Source: Escherichia coli (lineage in GTDB: Bacteria > Pseudomonadota > Gammaproteobacteria > Enterobacterales > Enterobacteriaceae). From it: a stretch of DNA of 64,000 nucleotides. The DNA lies in NCBI RefSeq assembly GCF_041248615.1, contig NZ_CP158426.1. One strand, given 5' to 3'. Made by a program: the position numbers and the translations under genes. Positions 53,664 through 58,198 of this stretch are shown here, in pieces; the first letter of the stretch is position 1, and each line of letters starts with the position of its first letter. Below the pieces are notes generated by a model. That model worked only from the letters and a program-made list of their open reading frames with translations. It was not told the origin of the DNA and searched no databases.

Positions 53664-55483
53664 GGGCAAATCCACTGTATGAGACATAATTAACCAGAAC
53701 CAGAATGCTGCAATTTCATTTTTTCTGATCCATTCAGGTATGTGATTATCTGCCAGATTATTATCATTCAATAAATGCTCAGTTGTTTTATTTTTCCAGT
53801 CATATCTATTCACGTTATAACCGCCTTTATATTGTTTCATCTGATTACGCCTCAATCGTTTTCTTTTCTGGTGATTTTCACCATCACATGTCAGTTGTAT
53901 ATGCAAGGGGATCAATAAAAATATCACCCTGCAAGCACTTCAAAGCTGATTATGGGGATATTCTAGAACTATTCACAAAACTATTCCAGACATATCAAGA
54001 ACTATTTCTTGACCTATTCATAATAAAATAAAACATGCTATCAACTACGGCTCATATTCTCCTTGGGGGTGTCGTTGTACTGTTCGACTGTTCTTGTGGT
54101 CAGATTAACAATCTGAAGAGTAAAAGCGACAGTAATCTGTCTGTTATAGTGGCGATAAAAACACTGAATGCGCATCCTGTATGTGAAATCCTGTCATGTA
54201 GAGCAGTAAGCAATGACAGACATGCATGTTATATGTGAAGGGGGCCGGGAGACGACATAATCAGTATGGCTGTCATTCTGGTTGTAAAACGCGATCACTT
54301 TCCGGGGGTAAAAGATGATATGGAGGTTGACAAACGGTTTGCTTCGGATTGTCTTTTCTGGGGCCTGAAATACGAGGGCAGAAAAATAATTCCAGAGTAA
54401 ATCTGCTCTGTTTTTAGGACAGAAAACTCCATGCTGGCTGTAAAAGTGAAAAATTAACACCCAGTATGTATGGAAGTCTGAAGATGTTGAGAATGTCGGT
54501 ATGATACTATATACACATATTTTACTAAGTATTTTTACTAAGCATTTCAGTAAGTGTTATACACGTATTTTCATAAACACTTCTACAATTGTTTTCGTTA
54601 AGCATTGCTATACACATCCAGTTTAGTAAATCTTTACGTTAACTAAATCAGTTTAATGCTGCTGTAAAACCTTTCTGCTTCAGCAATCAATCTGCTATTC
54701 GATTTTACTGATGTTACGTTTAACCTTTCCTAAGATTTCGAGTTTCGACGTTAGCATGAGAAAAGTATCTTTACGCTAAATCAACCCGAACTTTCCTGAA
54801 GTAATCTGACGTTTTTTTCGATGTGCTTACGACGATTCTGTTAAACGACTTTCTGGATGTTTTGATAACAATCAGATTGAGGCATTAACGATTCCTGACG
54901 TTTTCTTTTCCGTGTAAGGTCATTCTTTTTGTCATGAGGTTTCTTCTTGCATTGCGAAAGTGTGATGAACGGTTTTGGTGTTTTTGATTCAGATAAGGTT
55001 TACGTTATCGATGGTTAATCGTTTTTATGGTGCGTAGTGAAACGTAACTTTTTCAGGATGAGAAAATCGATTCTGATGTTGGTGATTTTTGTTCTTGTGG
55101 CGGGGTTTATCTGTAAACAGGTTTTAAACGTGTCATTCACATCCGTGATTGAGTTGTGTGATTAAGCTGTAGGTTTTGGGGTTGTTGTTGATTTGCATTA
55201 CCAGGAAGCGTTCTGGTTGCGTTTCTGGTGTTTTGTTCGAATGTTCTGTGGATCCTTTTCCCTTCTGACTTTTCTCGTTGTCCATGTCGTTTTTAAATCC
55301 ATTCGCTGTTCTTGAGTGTTTTTACCCTGCGTGTAGAATTATCTTTTCGTTCCGGGATGGTTTGTTCCGTTTCAATCACTCTTAATCAGAGAGTTGTAGC
55401 ATTGCTCAATGCCGGATGCCGTAAAGTTTTACCGCGGTGATTAATGATGTGAAGTCAATCCAAATCAACGGAGATCTCTCATC

Positions 55484-56215
55484 ATGAATCAACCAATACA
55501 CAATGCTTACTGGTTATCCCGTTTTGAAAGTATTCTCAACAGTGCCCTGGCGCAGCACCGTGCCGTCTCGTTAATCCGGGTGGATTTACGTTTCCCTGAG
55601 TATATGCCTGCCACCATCATGGATACCGATTTAGATTCAGCGGTGATTTCTCGTTTTTTTGCATCCCTGAAAGCAAAAATTCAGGCTTACCAGCGACATA
55701 AACGACGTGCCAACAAGCGTGTGCGTGCAACCACTCTGCGTTATTTCTGGTGTCGGGAGTTTGGCAAGGAAAAAGGCAGGAAACATTATCACGTGATATT
55801 ACTGCTCAACAAAGATACCTGGTGCTCGCCAGGGGATTTCACCGTTCCTTCTTCGCTGGCGACACTGATCAAGCTGGCATGGTGTAGTGCTCTGCATCTT
55901 GAGCCCTGGCAGGGTAATGGACTGGTTCATTTTTCCAGGCGGACGCCTTTCCGTAAACCGACATCATCTGATGCTCGCCCTTCTTCCGATGATACGCCTT
56001 TGTCGGGTGGATGTTCTGATACCAGGAAGGCTTCAGACAAAAAGCCGGGTGAAGCCGCTGTTCTCTGGATCAAGCGTGGTGATGTGGAAGCGCTGCAGAA
56101 AGCCCGGAACAGAGCCAGTTATCTCGTGAAATATGAGACGAAGCAGCATGACGGTTCCGGGCAACGTAATTATGGTTGCAGTCGTGGGCCGGGGCGTCTG
56201 CTGGATGGCAGGTGA
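55484..56215 (+). CDS. YagK/YfjJ-family protein (inovirus Gp2-like replication-initiator-like), copy 1
   Basis: 243-aa ORF; N-terminal region with HYHVILLLNKDTW-type motif; low-complexity C-terminal tail. Confidence 0.7.
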   Translation: MNQPIHNAYWLSRFESILNSALAQHRAVSLIRVDLRFPEYMPATIMDTDLDSAVISRFFASLKAKIQAYQRHKRRANKRVRATTLRYFWCREFGKEKGRKHYHVILLLNKDTWCSPGDFTVPSSLATLIKLAWCSALHLEPWQGNGLVHFSRRTPFRKPTSSDARPSSDDTPLSGGCSDTRKASDKKPGEAAVLWIKRGDVEALQKARNRASYLVKYETKQHDGSGQRNYGCSRGPGRLLDGR

Positions 56216-56571
56216 GCCCTGTAAAACGACATCCGGTGTCTGAGCTTATGCTACAGGACGTTGGCTGACGCCCTTAGCTCGTTTTCTGAAAAAGTCGTCC
56301 TGAAGTCATGCAACGGTATTTTTCTCTGCTTTCGCTCCTGGAAACACTCCGTCGGTAAAACCTTACTGTCCTGCTTAATGATGTGAACCGAAGTCAACGG
56401 AGAGCATTCATTCTGAACCTGCATCCGGTGTTCTGTCCCTTGTCGGTTACCTGATCTTCCCGTTCTGCCGCGGTTTTTCACTTATTCCATCAACCCCATA
56501 CGCAAGCCATAACACGTCAGCGCATCCACGGGCAGGACGCGTTGTGGGCTGCGTATAACGGAACATATCTT

Positions 56572-57144
56572 ATGAATGCTATCCCTTATTTCGACTATAG
56601 CATGGCGCCCTTCTGGCCATCTTATCAGAACAAAATCATCGGCGTTCTCAACCGTGTGTTGCGCGAGCAGTCCTGCTCCCGAATACGGCGGATCCTGCTT
56701 CGTCTGCCGGGGGAACATGGCAACATCTTCAGCGACAGAAAAACCTGGTTCGGTATGGCCTTTATCGAAACCGTCAGTGCGCTGATGAATGCAACCCCCG
56801 GACGCGACCTCTGCTGGCTCCTGACACGTCATCCTGAAAAACCGGAATACCACGTGGTGCTGTGCGTCAGACAGGAATATTTCGACGGCCCTGAGCTGGA
56901 CCGGTTGATTCTGGATGCCTGGAGCAACGTACTGGGCTTCGCGTCACCGGGTGAAGCAGCACCGTACCAGAAACAGATAACCCGGGATGTGGTGCTGGAC
57001 AGTTGTTCACCGGACTGCGAAGAGAGACTCAAAGAGCTGATATGGGCGTTCAGTGATTTCGCCCGCGATCGTCGTGGTGTGCGCGATCCGGAAGCCCGTT
57101 ACCTCGCCGGTAATCCCTGGTATCCCGTAGCAGGCCAGCTCTGA
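56572..57144 (+). CDS. YagK/YfjJ-family protein, copy 2
   Basis: ORF 56542..57144; start at MNAIPYFDY; paralogous to copy 1 (EYHVVLCVRQEYF motif). Confidence 0.65.
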   Translation: MNAIPYFDYSMAPFWPSYQNKIIGVLNRVLREQSCSRIRRILLRLPGEHGNIFSDRKTWFGMAFIETVSALMNATPGRDLCWLLTRHPEKPEYHVVLCVRQEYFDGPELDRLILDAWSNVLGFASPGEAAPYQKQITRDVVLDSCSPDCEERLKELIWAFSDFARDRRGVRDPEARYLAGNPWYPVAGQL

Positions 57145-57212
57145 AAGCTCAGCTCAGCAGATTCACCCGCATTTGCCCAACATTCATAAATCTCACAGAG
57201 GACATTCTGACC

Positions 57213-57449
57213 ATGTTGACCTCAATGACAGGTCACGACAGCGTATTGCTGCGTGCCGACGATCCCCTGATCGACATGAACTACATCACCAGCTTCACTG
57301 GTATGACCGACAAATGGTTTTACAAGCTGATCAGTGAAGGCCATTTCCCTAAACCCATCAAACTGGGGCGCAGCAGCCGCTGGTACAAAAGTGAAGTGGA
57401 GCAGTGGATGCAGCAACGAATCGAGGCATCACGAGGGGCAGCAGCATGA
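57213..57449 (+). CDS. AlpA-family phage regulatory protein / excisionase-like DNA-binding protein
   Basis: 78-aa ORF with HTH (YITSFTGMTDKWFYKLISEGHFPKPIKLGRSSRWYKSEVEQWM), typical AlpA pattern. Confidence 0.8.
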   Translation: MLTSMTGHDSVLLRADDPLIDMNYITSFTGMTDKWFYKLISEGHFPKPIKLGRSSRWYKSEVEQWMQQRIEASRGAAA

Positions 57450-57649
57450 AACGTGTTGTAATGCCGGTACGCTGGCAATGTGCAAAATACCAGCGTTGGT
57501 ATTGTGGAAATCAGCCCTGTCCCTGGTGCTGGCGACCTGCTGCCCCCGTCTGTCATTCCTCGTTCTTCGCTGTAACAGGCATCGTACCGGTCTCGGCGTG
57601 CTTTCCTGCGTACCGACACCGGTTCAGCAACATTCAAGGGGATCAAATC

Positions 57650-58198
57650 GTGCAAATAACCGAAACCGTACTTTCAGAGCCGGTGGAAATCCGGCGTTTT
57701 ATTCAGCAGGCGGTGGATCACTGGCCGCGTCTGCTGGCCGTCCACTTCACACTCCATTCGGCAGAAGGAAACATCAACGGACAACAGATTCATGCATTCT
57801 GTACTTCCTTTTACCGACAGGTGCACGAGCGTATTACTGAACGTAATCACACGGCCAGTCCAGCACCACCGGTGGTATTACGCTGGTTGCGGGAACAACA
57901 TGGAGGAGCAACAATGCGATGCCTGTTGCTGCTCAGCCAGACGAGCATTTGCCATCCACGGGTCAGTGCCACGGTTGATGAAGAATGTTCGCAACGGGTG
58001 GATTTATTGCAACAGACATGGCGGGTGATAAGTGCTGACGGACAATGCCGGGTGGAAAGGTGTTTTCAGGCTGCCCGGGGTGATACATCCGGCCAGTATA
58101 TTGCGTTAAAAACAGTTGCATTGTCTCTGGGGTTACCGGTTGTGACCGGTATTACCCATCGCCCGGTACAGCGCTGTACATTGATTACAGCTCAGTGA
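57650..58198 (+). CDS. YagK/YfjJ-family protein, copy 3 (start uncertain)
   Basis: ORF 57404..58198; homology to copies 1 and 2 begins near the GTG at 57650 (QITETVLSEPVEIRRFIQQAVDHWPRLLAVHFTLHSAE); upstream part of ORF is Cys/Trp-rich and probably not coding. Confidence 0.55.
   Translation: MQITETVLSEPVEIRRFIQQAVDHWPRLLAVHFTLHSAEGNINGQQIHAFCTSFYRQVHERITERNHTASPAPPVVLRWLREQHGGATMRCLLLLSQTSICHPRVSATVDEECSQRVDLLQQTWRVISADGQCRVERCFQAARGDTSGQYIALKTVALSLGLPVVTGITHRPVQRCTLITAQ

Follow-up and report, generated by a model that had tools for sequence, protein, structure and literature searches.

A YagK/YfjJ gene block in a composite CP4-type genomic island of Escherichia coli: one Rep-like gene with intact nickase motifs, two degenerate paralogues and a duplicated leader

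The founding members of the YagK/YfjJ protein family (PF11726), YfjJ and YagK of Escherichia coli K-12, are encoded in the cryptic islands CP4-57 and CP4-6, respectively; yfjJ lies near alpA, with yfjI (DUF3987) between the two. A comparable pairing, in which an inovirus Gp2-family gene stands beside an AlpA/Vis-type gene, is a recurrent core feature of integrase-bearing islands and has been described for orf39-orf41 of the SRL pathogenicity island (PAI) of Shigella (PMC6980539) and for tmRNA-integrated islands of Pseudomonas (bioRxiv 10.1101/2024.08.29.610337). The passages of these two sources that deal with such genes describe single Gp2-like genes, state no role for them and mention neither degenerate paralogues nor a repeated leader. 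Here we analyse a block of three Rep-like open reading frames (ORFs), an AlpA gene and a duplicated leader sequence, located in a 64-kb stretch of E. coli DNA (contig NZ_CP158426.1; this whole stretch is referred to below as the window). Like the K-12 genes, the block resides in a CP4-type island, but it encodes three proteins related to YagK and YfjJ instead of one.

All genes of the block are on the plus strand: ORF1 (55484-56215; 243 amino acids (aa); annotated in RefSeq as an inovirus Gp2 family protein, WP_023155732.1), ORF2 (56572-57144; 190 aa; hypothetical protein), the AlpA gene (57213-57449; 78 aa; helix-turn-helix/AlpA regulator) and ORF3 (57650-58198; 182 aa from the RefSeq start GTG 57650, within a reading frame that is open from 57404). 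The 3.8-kb segment containing them (55000-58800) is 100% identical to the chromosome of E. coli NRZ14408 (NZ_LT599825.1). A preliminary description of the window had reported the three ORFs, the AlpA gene and an exact pair of sequence motifs, and all of them were found at the positions given there. We consider it probable that they represent a conserved core block of CP4-type integrative islands, composed of an intact nickase-type gene (ORF1), two degenerate partner paralogues (ORF2 and ORF3), AlpA and a cis-regulatory leader. It is an ordinary, common island module and not a new type of system. Parts of the block are present in 2860 of 5426 complete E. coli genomes, at a median of two places per genome (220 of the 2860 match across at least 80% of the 3.8-kb query), and multi-paralogue arrays recur elsewhere, so that the arrangement cannot be called unusual, as had been supposed.

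ORF1 is the canonical member of the block. It matches the PF11726 hidden Markov model (HMM) with 125.4 bits (E = 2.9e-36), above the gathering score of 25.8 bits, as well as replication-initiation families of PHROG and the REP_ORF2-G2P family (PF23343; E = 3.4e-10) of filamentous-phage gene II proteins, with which it has the HUH and YxxK motifs in common. K-12 YfjJ and YagK are each 30% identical to ORF1 (E = 1e-26) and align with it from end to end, HUH and YxxK motifs included. When 20 sequences of the family were aligned, H101-Y-H103 and Y213-L-V-K216 of ORF1 fell on nearly invariant columns, and among the three ORFs the HUH metal-binding motif and the catalytic YxxK tyrosine are intact in ORF1 alone. 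These motifs suggest that ORF1 is a HUH Rep/nickase-fold protein with nickase activity. In comparison with the initiators of filamentous phages, it consists of a small nuclease-type domain only; moreover, no filamentous-phage genes lie near the block, and a search of 50,697 phage records gave no match to ORF3.

The greater length of ORF1 relative to the two K-12 proteins (208 aa) is due to a low-complexity insert of about 45 aa, located between the HUH and YxxK motifs (residues ~152-195; window 55937-56068). This insert is rich in Ser, Pro, Asp and Lys and is missing from every family member outside E. coli, while the 214-aa variants of ORF1 found in databases carry frameshifts within it. K-12 YagJ, which is also 243 aa long, proved to be unrelated by sequence. 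The K-12 genes differ from the block also in being single copies without ORF2-type or UCP030791-type (i.e. ORF3-type, see below) neighbours. In a metagenome-assembled Enterobacteriaceae genome (locus L011, 4001-4732) we found an ORF1 allele that is 93% identical and preceded by an identical leader; neither ORF2 nor AlpA is present within 4 kb after it, and a second YagK-type gene (7438-8004) lies 2.7 kb downstream. The ORF1 gene and its leader therefore travel in other contexts too.

The leader of ORF1 is repeated upstream of ORF2. The motif TTAATGATGTGAA-N-TCAACGGAGA occurs in exactly two copies in the window (55441-55474 and 56375-56403), and since the pair was absent from 100 dinucleotide shuffles, its chance expectation is zero. 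The full repeat, also on the plus strand, is about 65 nucleotides (nt) long (copy 1, 55421-55488; copy 2, 56355-56417), with about 75% identity and a 5-nt indel; it includes an upstream near-palindrome (GTAAAGTTTTAC / GTAAAACCTTAC) and gives a local alignment score of 34, compared with a mean of 16.9 and a maximum of 25 for shuffled sequences. In copy 1 the near-palindrome GTAAAGTTTTAC is followed by TTAATGATGTGAA, TCAACGGAGA (containing the Shine-Dalgarno sequence) and the ATG of ORF1, the motif ending in the Shine-Dalgarno sequence 9 nt before this ATG. Copy 2 has the same blocks with CTG replacing ATG, and its motif ends 155 nt before the ATG of ORF2. No copy is present in the region upstream of ORF3. 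The duplicated regulatory or translation-initiation element that had been proposed is thus a genuine duplication and does precede both ORF1 and ORF2, but copy 1 alone is a translation-initiation region, copy 2 being remote from the translation start of ORF2; among the three upstream regions whose comparison had been suggested, that of ORF3 lacks the motif.

A total of 1894 E. coli genomes contain copy 1 together with the first codons, without exception at a Gp2 gene; in 1873 of 1895 records from this species the identity amounts to 95% or more. In a comparison with four divergent alleles, conservation along the module reaches its peak in copy 1 (0.97-0.99), with values of 0.66-0.84 just upstream and of 0.86-0.99, mostly above 0.9, over ORF1. 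In 11 divergent E. coli alleles the core of copy 2 is invariant save for one C/T position, and it forms a local conservation peak of its own (0.90 versus 0.71-0.84 on both flanks). Copy 2 is kept even where a different Gp2 gene, encoding a protein of 188 aa, lies upstream: in 042-type islands ORF1 is swapped for this variant, and homology to the window starts at about 56330. A common leader architecture, comprising GTA-N6-TAC, 13 nt, GAT(G/A)TGAA, GGAG and ATG, is seen at canonical YagK genes of Rosenbergiella, Hafnia/Klebsiella, Proteus/Providencia and the Yersinia group. The motif was not found upstream of K-12 yfjJ and yagK, so the suggested comparison with K-12 bore out the relationship of the ORF1 protein and not that of its upstream region. 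In canonical yagK-type genes the motif forms the conserved 5' leader, and this leader has been duplicated upstream of ORF2.

Two further observations concern the repeat and its surroundings. The 188-aa Gp2 variant, which has a HAHVVFW motif and is without the leader motif, occupies the place of ORF1 in many E. coli islands, and the homology breakpoint there is sharp (~56328-56337; loci L006 and L066-L071), similarity beginning about 25 nt upstream of copy 2. A search for a known RNA family in Rfam, made at the E-value threshold, yielded only a chance-level match to PhotoRC-I, inside ORF1.

In copy 1, GAUUAAUGAUG is predicted to pair with CAUCAUGAAUC, forming a hairpin that covers the Shine-Dalgarno sequence and the AUG. 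The paired probability of the start region is 0.79; shuffling of the upstream arm lowers it to 0.54 ± 0.10, and the observed value was attained by 1 shuffle in 100. Across 36 YagK-type genes, whose loci are phylogenetically related and whose start codons were assigned heuristically, mean start-region occlusion was 0.55 against 0.50 expected (Wilcoxon p = 0.011), with 11 of the 36 at or below 5%; in several marine relatives a clear hairpin, CCUAUGA...UCAUAGG, overlaps the Shine-Dalgarno sequence. For copy 2, the whole 226-nt leader RNA folds with z = -2.76, and only 1 of 200 shuffles folds better. In the RNAalifold consensus, the copy-2 motif pairs with a downstream segment and there is one covarying pair, in which the variable position of copy 2 changes together with the downstream base (CG in 4 alleles, UG in 3, UA in 3 and CA in 1).

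The spacer between copy 2 and the start of ORF2 (56418-56571, plus strand), a structured candidate for a 5' untranslated or intercistronic region, carries 1-nt and 12-nt indels among alleles and is therefore non-coding. An N-terminal extension of ORF2 starting from the CTG is ruled out by the 1-nt indels and the conserved starts MNAIPYF/MHYPL/MQHFL: those ORF2 proteins in the database that keep their N-terminus, as well as both distant relatives of ORF2, start at the same Met. The 12-nt indel is a presence/absence polymorphism of GTCGGTTACCTG at 56442-56453 (loci L006, L007 and L068-L070); the segment holds an in-frame TGA in the window, and in E. coli 042, from which it is absent, the frame is open from the copy-2 CTG to the ORF2 ATG. 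It was also observed that 56396-56411 (3' half of copy 2, AACGGAGAGCATTCAT) is 88% complementary over 16 nt to 56572-56587 (start of ORF2, ATGAATGCTATCCCTT), and that the two pair in the single-sequence fold, enclosing the 160-nt spacer. In E. coli 042 this complementarity falls to 12 of 16 positions, and the alignment consensus favours another pairing.

We regard cis-regulation, whether of translation or of expression, as the likeliest role of the leader, with recognition or nicking by a Rep protein as the main alternative. Copy 1 would supply the ribosome-binding site of ORF1, and the pairing of GAUUAAUGAUG with CAUCAUGAAUC would hold down translation of the nickase gene. Copy 2 would be a duplicated leader minus its start codon, retained at the head of the untranslated stretch before ORF2, where it presumably acts as a cis-regulatory element for ORF2-alpA-ORF3. 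Several results speak against such a role. The family-wide occlusion effect is small and comes from related loci, the folding z-scores of short fragments are not significant (-0.5 and -0.2), and the pairing at the pseudo-start of copy 2 equals the shuffle level (0.64 versus 0.64). The copy-1 hairpin shows no covariation among E. coli alleles, which are 96% identical, and two E. coli variants of copy 1 (L012 and L064) weaken its outer stem without compensation. Promoter prediction, one of the checks suggested in the preliminary description, detected no sigma-70 promoter inside either leader copy; in E. coli the GAT(G/A)TGAA block is without an acceptable -10 element.

Some of these results would also fit an explanation in which copy 2 is a functionless relic, left by a partial duplication or by the 5' end of a deleted gene, and owes its conservation to the young age of the islands. 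Such a relic could well have CTG in the place of ATG, no coding continuity across a spacer with 1-nt and 12-nt indels, a start region no more structured than shuffled sequences and a single covarying pair. It would not be expected, however, to keep a core invariant at all but one position in 11 alleles between flanks that fall to 0.71-0.84, to persist in islands whose upstream gene is a different one, to covary with a downstream base at its sole variable motif position, or to belong to a 226-nt leader that folds better than nearly all shuffles. We regard the relic as unlikely. A decayed 5' coding sequence of ORF1 after copy 2, suggested by an ATC..CCCGTT shared by eye, was rejected: the downstream alignment score of 16 is reached by 46% of shuffles.

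A second explanation takes the leader to be a DNA site for the HUH protein, either an origin/nick site or a Rep-binding operator, whose two direct copies bracket ORF1. In rolling-circle replicons, origins sit beside rep genes. A site of this type would be in keeping with the intact HUH and YxxK motifs of ORF1, with a conservation of the leader DNA that equals or exceeds that of the coding sequence, with the recurrence in several genera of the near-palindrome GTA-N6-TAC 13 nt upstream of GAT(G/A)TGAA, and with the hairpins found before the start codon in distant relatives. There may also be a loose likeness between TTAATGATGTG and the nick region of f1/M13 gpII (CTTTAATAGTGG). On the other hand, the distance from the element to the Shine-Dalgarno sequence and ATG is fixed, which better suits a translation leader, and the hairpin loops differ between lineages. 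The 042-type islands, moreover, have copy 2 only, beside a different Gp2 gene lacking a motif of its own, and DNA-fold z-scores are unremarkable (-1.65 to +0.45). A DNA site for the HUH protein is rather improbable, and we retain cis-regulation as the preferred role of the leader.

The two remaining Rep-like ORFs are far more divergent than ORF1. Against the PF11726 HMM, ORF2 scores 11.7 bits (E = 0.26), below the gathering score, and an exhaustive phmmer search of 1.8 billion representatives showed its family to be very narrow, with two relatives that are distant but of full length. One of these (P0317), which is 36% identical to ORF2 (phmmer E = 4e-15), itself matches PF11726 above the cut-off (41.8 bits, E = 1.4e-10). 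When the alignment of ORF2 with its distant relatives was compared with a YagK/YfjJ alignment, hhalign gave a probability of 98.2% (E = 3.9e-14) over 150 colinear columns. A scan of one genome per bacterial and archaeal species provided 51 loci, and at most of them the ORF2 profile retrieved the canonical YagK gene. In the hhalign alignment ORF2 has E92-Y93-H94 at the HUH columns, the first His being lost, and Asp162 at the column of the catalytic tyrosine. Its AlphaFold model (predicted local distance difference test (pLDDT) 77) appears to resemble viral Rep nuclease domains. On account of the hhalign result and the link through P0317, and despite the sub-threshold PF11726 score, we class ORF2 as a highly divergent paralogue of the YagK/YfjJ superfamily with degenerate catalytic motifs, and not as a PF11726 member.

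ORF3 gave no match to the PF11726 HMM at E ≤ 10. Among the at least 120 listed homologues of ORF3, all carry a precomputed PF27752 (UCP030791) assignment, including one that is 99% identical over the full length. RefSeq names for ORF3 vary between hypothetical protein, YagK/YfjJ domain-containing protein and UCP030791 (e.g. WP_001167455.1, "UCP030791 family putative phage-derived protein"). PF11726 is matched weakly by 4 of 38 members of the ORF3 family (best E = 2.5e-4), and a tblastn search with ORF3 led to Klebsiella plasmid genes annotated as inovirus-type Gp2 (E = 6e-4). A narrow alignment restricted to E. coli reached an hhalign probability of 3.7-17% against YagK/YfjJ; with four distant members added (from Klebsiella, Hafnia and a metagenome) the value was 95.3% (E = 2.3e-8) over 149 columns. 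According to this alignment both His residues of the HUH motif are gone (T88-M89-R90), and Ser159 stands at the catalytic tyrosine column. On account of its homologues we provisionally assign ORF3 to the PF27752 (UCP030791) family, and we regard it as a remote paralogue within the YagK/YfjJ superfamily.

The best AlphaFold model of ORF3 (pLDDT 74) has a viral Rep nuclease domain as its top match and shares its helix-strand order with the model of ORF2. This fold evidence is supportive rather than decisive, generic ferredoxin/palm folds being also numerous in the match lists of both proteins. ORF2 and ORF3 differ from rolling-circle HUH initiators in lacking the catalytic residues, so that ORF1 would be the sole potentially active nickase of the block, beside two degenerate paralogues; the latter are most likely non-catalytic partners with a DNA-binding or regulatory role. 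This view of the proteins also has points against it. The structure model of ORF3 is weak, as 1 of 5 models reached pLDDT 74, its matches below the top Rep domain are generic palm and GGDEF folds, and those in BFVD all have E values above 1e-3. Furthermore, the literature yielded no published assay for any YagK/YfjJ protein, and no relative with a solved structure was found.

It may be asked whether ORF2 and ORF3 are unrelated hypothetical proteins whose resemblance to YagK/YfjJ is spurious. Their PF11726 results and the low values of the narrow ORF3 alignment would agree with this, as would the direct hhalign comparison of ORF2 with ORF3 (0.1-14%). Yet the diversified profiles of both proteins produce long colinear alignments over the same motifs, both retrieve canonical YagK proteins from independent genomes, and the NCBI pipeline itself sometimes labels ORF3 as a YagK/YfjJ domain protein, which makes a spurious resemblance very unlikely. 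The earlier designation of all three as YagK/YfjJ paralogues is thus upheld at the superfamily level by profile methods (directly for ORF1), while ORF2 and ORF3 stay below the PF11726 threshold; the pairwise alignment that had been suggested as a check was unconvincing with BLASTP (E = 0.024, E = 0.035 and no hit).

The preliminary description had further spoken of a tandem triplication of a Rep-like gene. If this were recent, the three would be young duplicates of one gene and the motif would mark the duplication unit. The genes are adjacent and on the same strand, two of them behind a leader at 75% identity, but a recent triplication can be dismissed almost entirely, since the proteins are at most 21% identical with essentially non-significant BLASTP values, each type has relatives of its own in other genera and metagenomes, repeat similarity stops after the leaders, and ORF3 has no leader copy. 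The low identity and the presence of subfamily relatives in other genera indicate, instead, that the paralogy is ancient and that ORF2 and ORF3 have each been conserved in their own right.

The region between the AlpA gene and ORF3 appears to contain the remnant of another gene. An ATG at 57446 overlaps the alpA stop codon as ATGA, and its frame continues unbroken into ORF3. The product of this frame starts with MKRVVMPVRWQCAKYQRWYCGNQPCPWCW, which shows a WxCxxC...CPxC zinc-ribbon pattern with the first cysteine pair damaged (C-A-K-Y, as compared with C-A-K-C in allele L010). The segment 57446-57652 did not match the Zn_ribbon_11 (PF11682) HMM, and other E. coli alleles have indels and separate ORFs of 41-52 aa in the alpA-ORF3 stretch. 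In Klebsiella, AlpA and the UCP030791 gene are separated by zinc-ribbon genes, and a plasmid carries intact Zn_ribbon_11/DUF7828 genes at the corresponding position; at locus L062, zinc-ribbon genes lie upstream of an ORF2-like gene. The plus-strand segment 57446-57649 thus reads as a decaying Zn_ribbon_11-type gene, in frame with ORF3 in the NRZ14408 allele, with the Rep-like domain beginning at the annotated GTG 57650. The third Rep-like copy had been placed right after the AlpA stop; the long open frame does begin there, while the domain itself starts about 200 nt later.

This Klebsiella replicon, the IncFIB/IncHI1B plasmid NZ_CP110517.1, contains the array Gp2 - AlpA - two zinc-ribbon proteins - Gp2-type (UCP030791-like) - DUF2913. 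As in the window, AlpA has a canonical Gp2 gene before it, here with a related leader, and a UCP030791-type gene after it. The plasmid differs in that its zinc-ribbon genes are intact and not a relic, no ORF2-type gene separates Gp2 from AlpA, and the array ends with the DUF2913 gene, whereas in the window a convergent, frameshifted ProQ/FinO gene follows. In ten E. coli loci that were fetched the order was Gp2 / ORF2 / AlpA, with an additional separate small ORF and/or an ORF3-type gene start after alpA in 5 of the 10. An unrelated metagenome contig carries AlpA, a Rep-like gene and an ORF2-type gene, with a UCP030791 gene and DUF2913 coming straight after the last of these. In Hafnia paralvei an ORF3-type gene lies about 1.1 kb beyond the pair Gp2 - AlpA.

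The AlpA gene product matches PF05930 (Phage_AlpA) with 40.8 bits (E = 2e-10; cut-off 21 bits), and with its 78 aa it falls within the size of small regulators of this kind (about 70-80 aa), unlike the Pseudomonas antiterminator of the same name, which has about 150 aa; we assign it to the small AlpA/Vis-type winged-helix regulators, which are Vis/Xis-like. The Gp2-AlpA pairing is widespread in Gammaproteobacteria: of the 51 species loci, 37 have an AlpA relative no more than 4 kb away from the YagK-type gene, which it follows directly in about 21. The antiterminator AlpA of Pseudomonas, whose binding element is GGGACG (PMC9371919), is a different protein that shares the name alone, and no relevant site is present here.

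On the basis of the shared strand, the ATGA overlap of alpA with the zinc-ribbon relic, and the failure to find a terminator-like site between the module genes, we infer that ORF1, ORF2, alpA, the relic and ORF3 probably form a single operon. The sigma-70-like promoter candidate nearest to the leader is located upstream of copy 1, at 55312-55339, promoter-like sites in total being fewer than expected from shuffles. Given this candidate and no separating terminator, both leader copies would be part of one mRNA. At the distal end of the block, the stop codon of ORF3 falls within a 17-nt inverted repeat (58168-58208) whose arms are 88% complementary and 7 nt apart; lying between ORF3 and the convergent ProQ/FinO gene, this repeat may be a bidirectional terminator, albeit without a T-run.

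According to the annotation of NZ_LT599825.1, the block is situated in a composite CP4-type genomic island adjoining ynjB. In the RefSeq annotation of the window, ynjB (42335-43501) is followed by minus-strand island genes at ~45000-50660 (a CbtA/YeeU toxin-antitoxin system, RadC-JAB, antirestriction, DUF932 and YeeP-type GTPase genes); a DUF4942 gene is also among the minus-strand genes to the left of the block, and an IS3-family insertion sequence (IS) element occupies 52435-53663. To the right, the ProQ/FinO-family gene (58216-58724, minus strand) is split into two ORFs (58216-58518 and 58533-58727) and annotated in RefSeq as frameshifted, and this pseudogene accompanies the block in other strains too. 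It is followed by an IS1 remnant (59127-59818), a YadA-like adhesin gene (61254-62801) and a sigma-factor-like helix-turn-helix gene (62863-63318), and the aerobactin operon lies directly past the end of the window. A PADLOC search of the three Rep-like ORFs for anti-phage defence gave no matches.

YagK/YfjJ genes are among the commonest uncharacterised genes of enterobacterial genomic islands, where they reside beside virulence cargo, represented here by the aerobactin operon and the YadA-like adhesin. Our analysis adds to their annotation in that the "hypothetical" ORF2 family is recognised as a degenerate member of the Rep-like superfamily, and catalytic residues are kept in one of the three paralogues only; moreover, the conservation of a short leader equals or exceeds that of the module genes themselves. 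It is conceivable, though we hold it to be a distant prospect, that the block encodes a three-part Rep assembly, in which the HUH nickase ORF1 acts with two catalytically dead paralogues and AlpA, and the 65-nt leader serves as their common cis site, whether as an autoregulatory operator, an RNA switch or a nick/origin site. Through the leader such an assembly, if real, would govern how the excised island is replicated or mobilised. The uncharacterised YagK/YfjJ family, present in roughly one third to one half of complete E. coli genomes, would thereby gain its first function.

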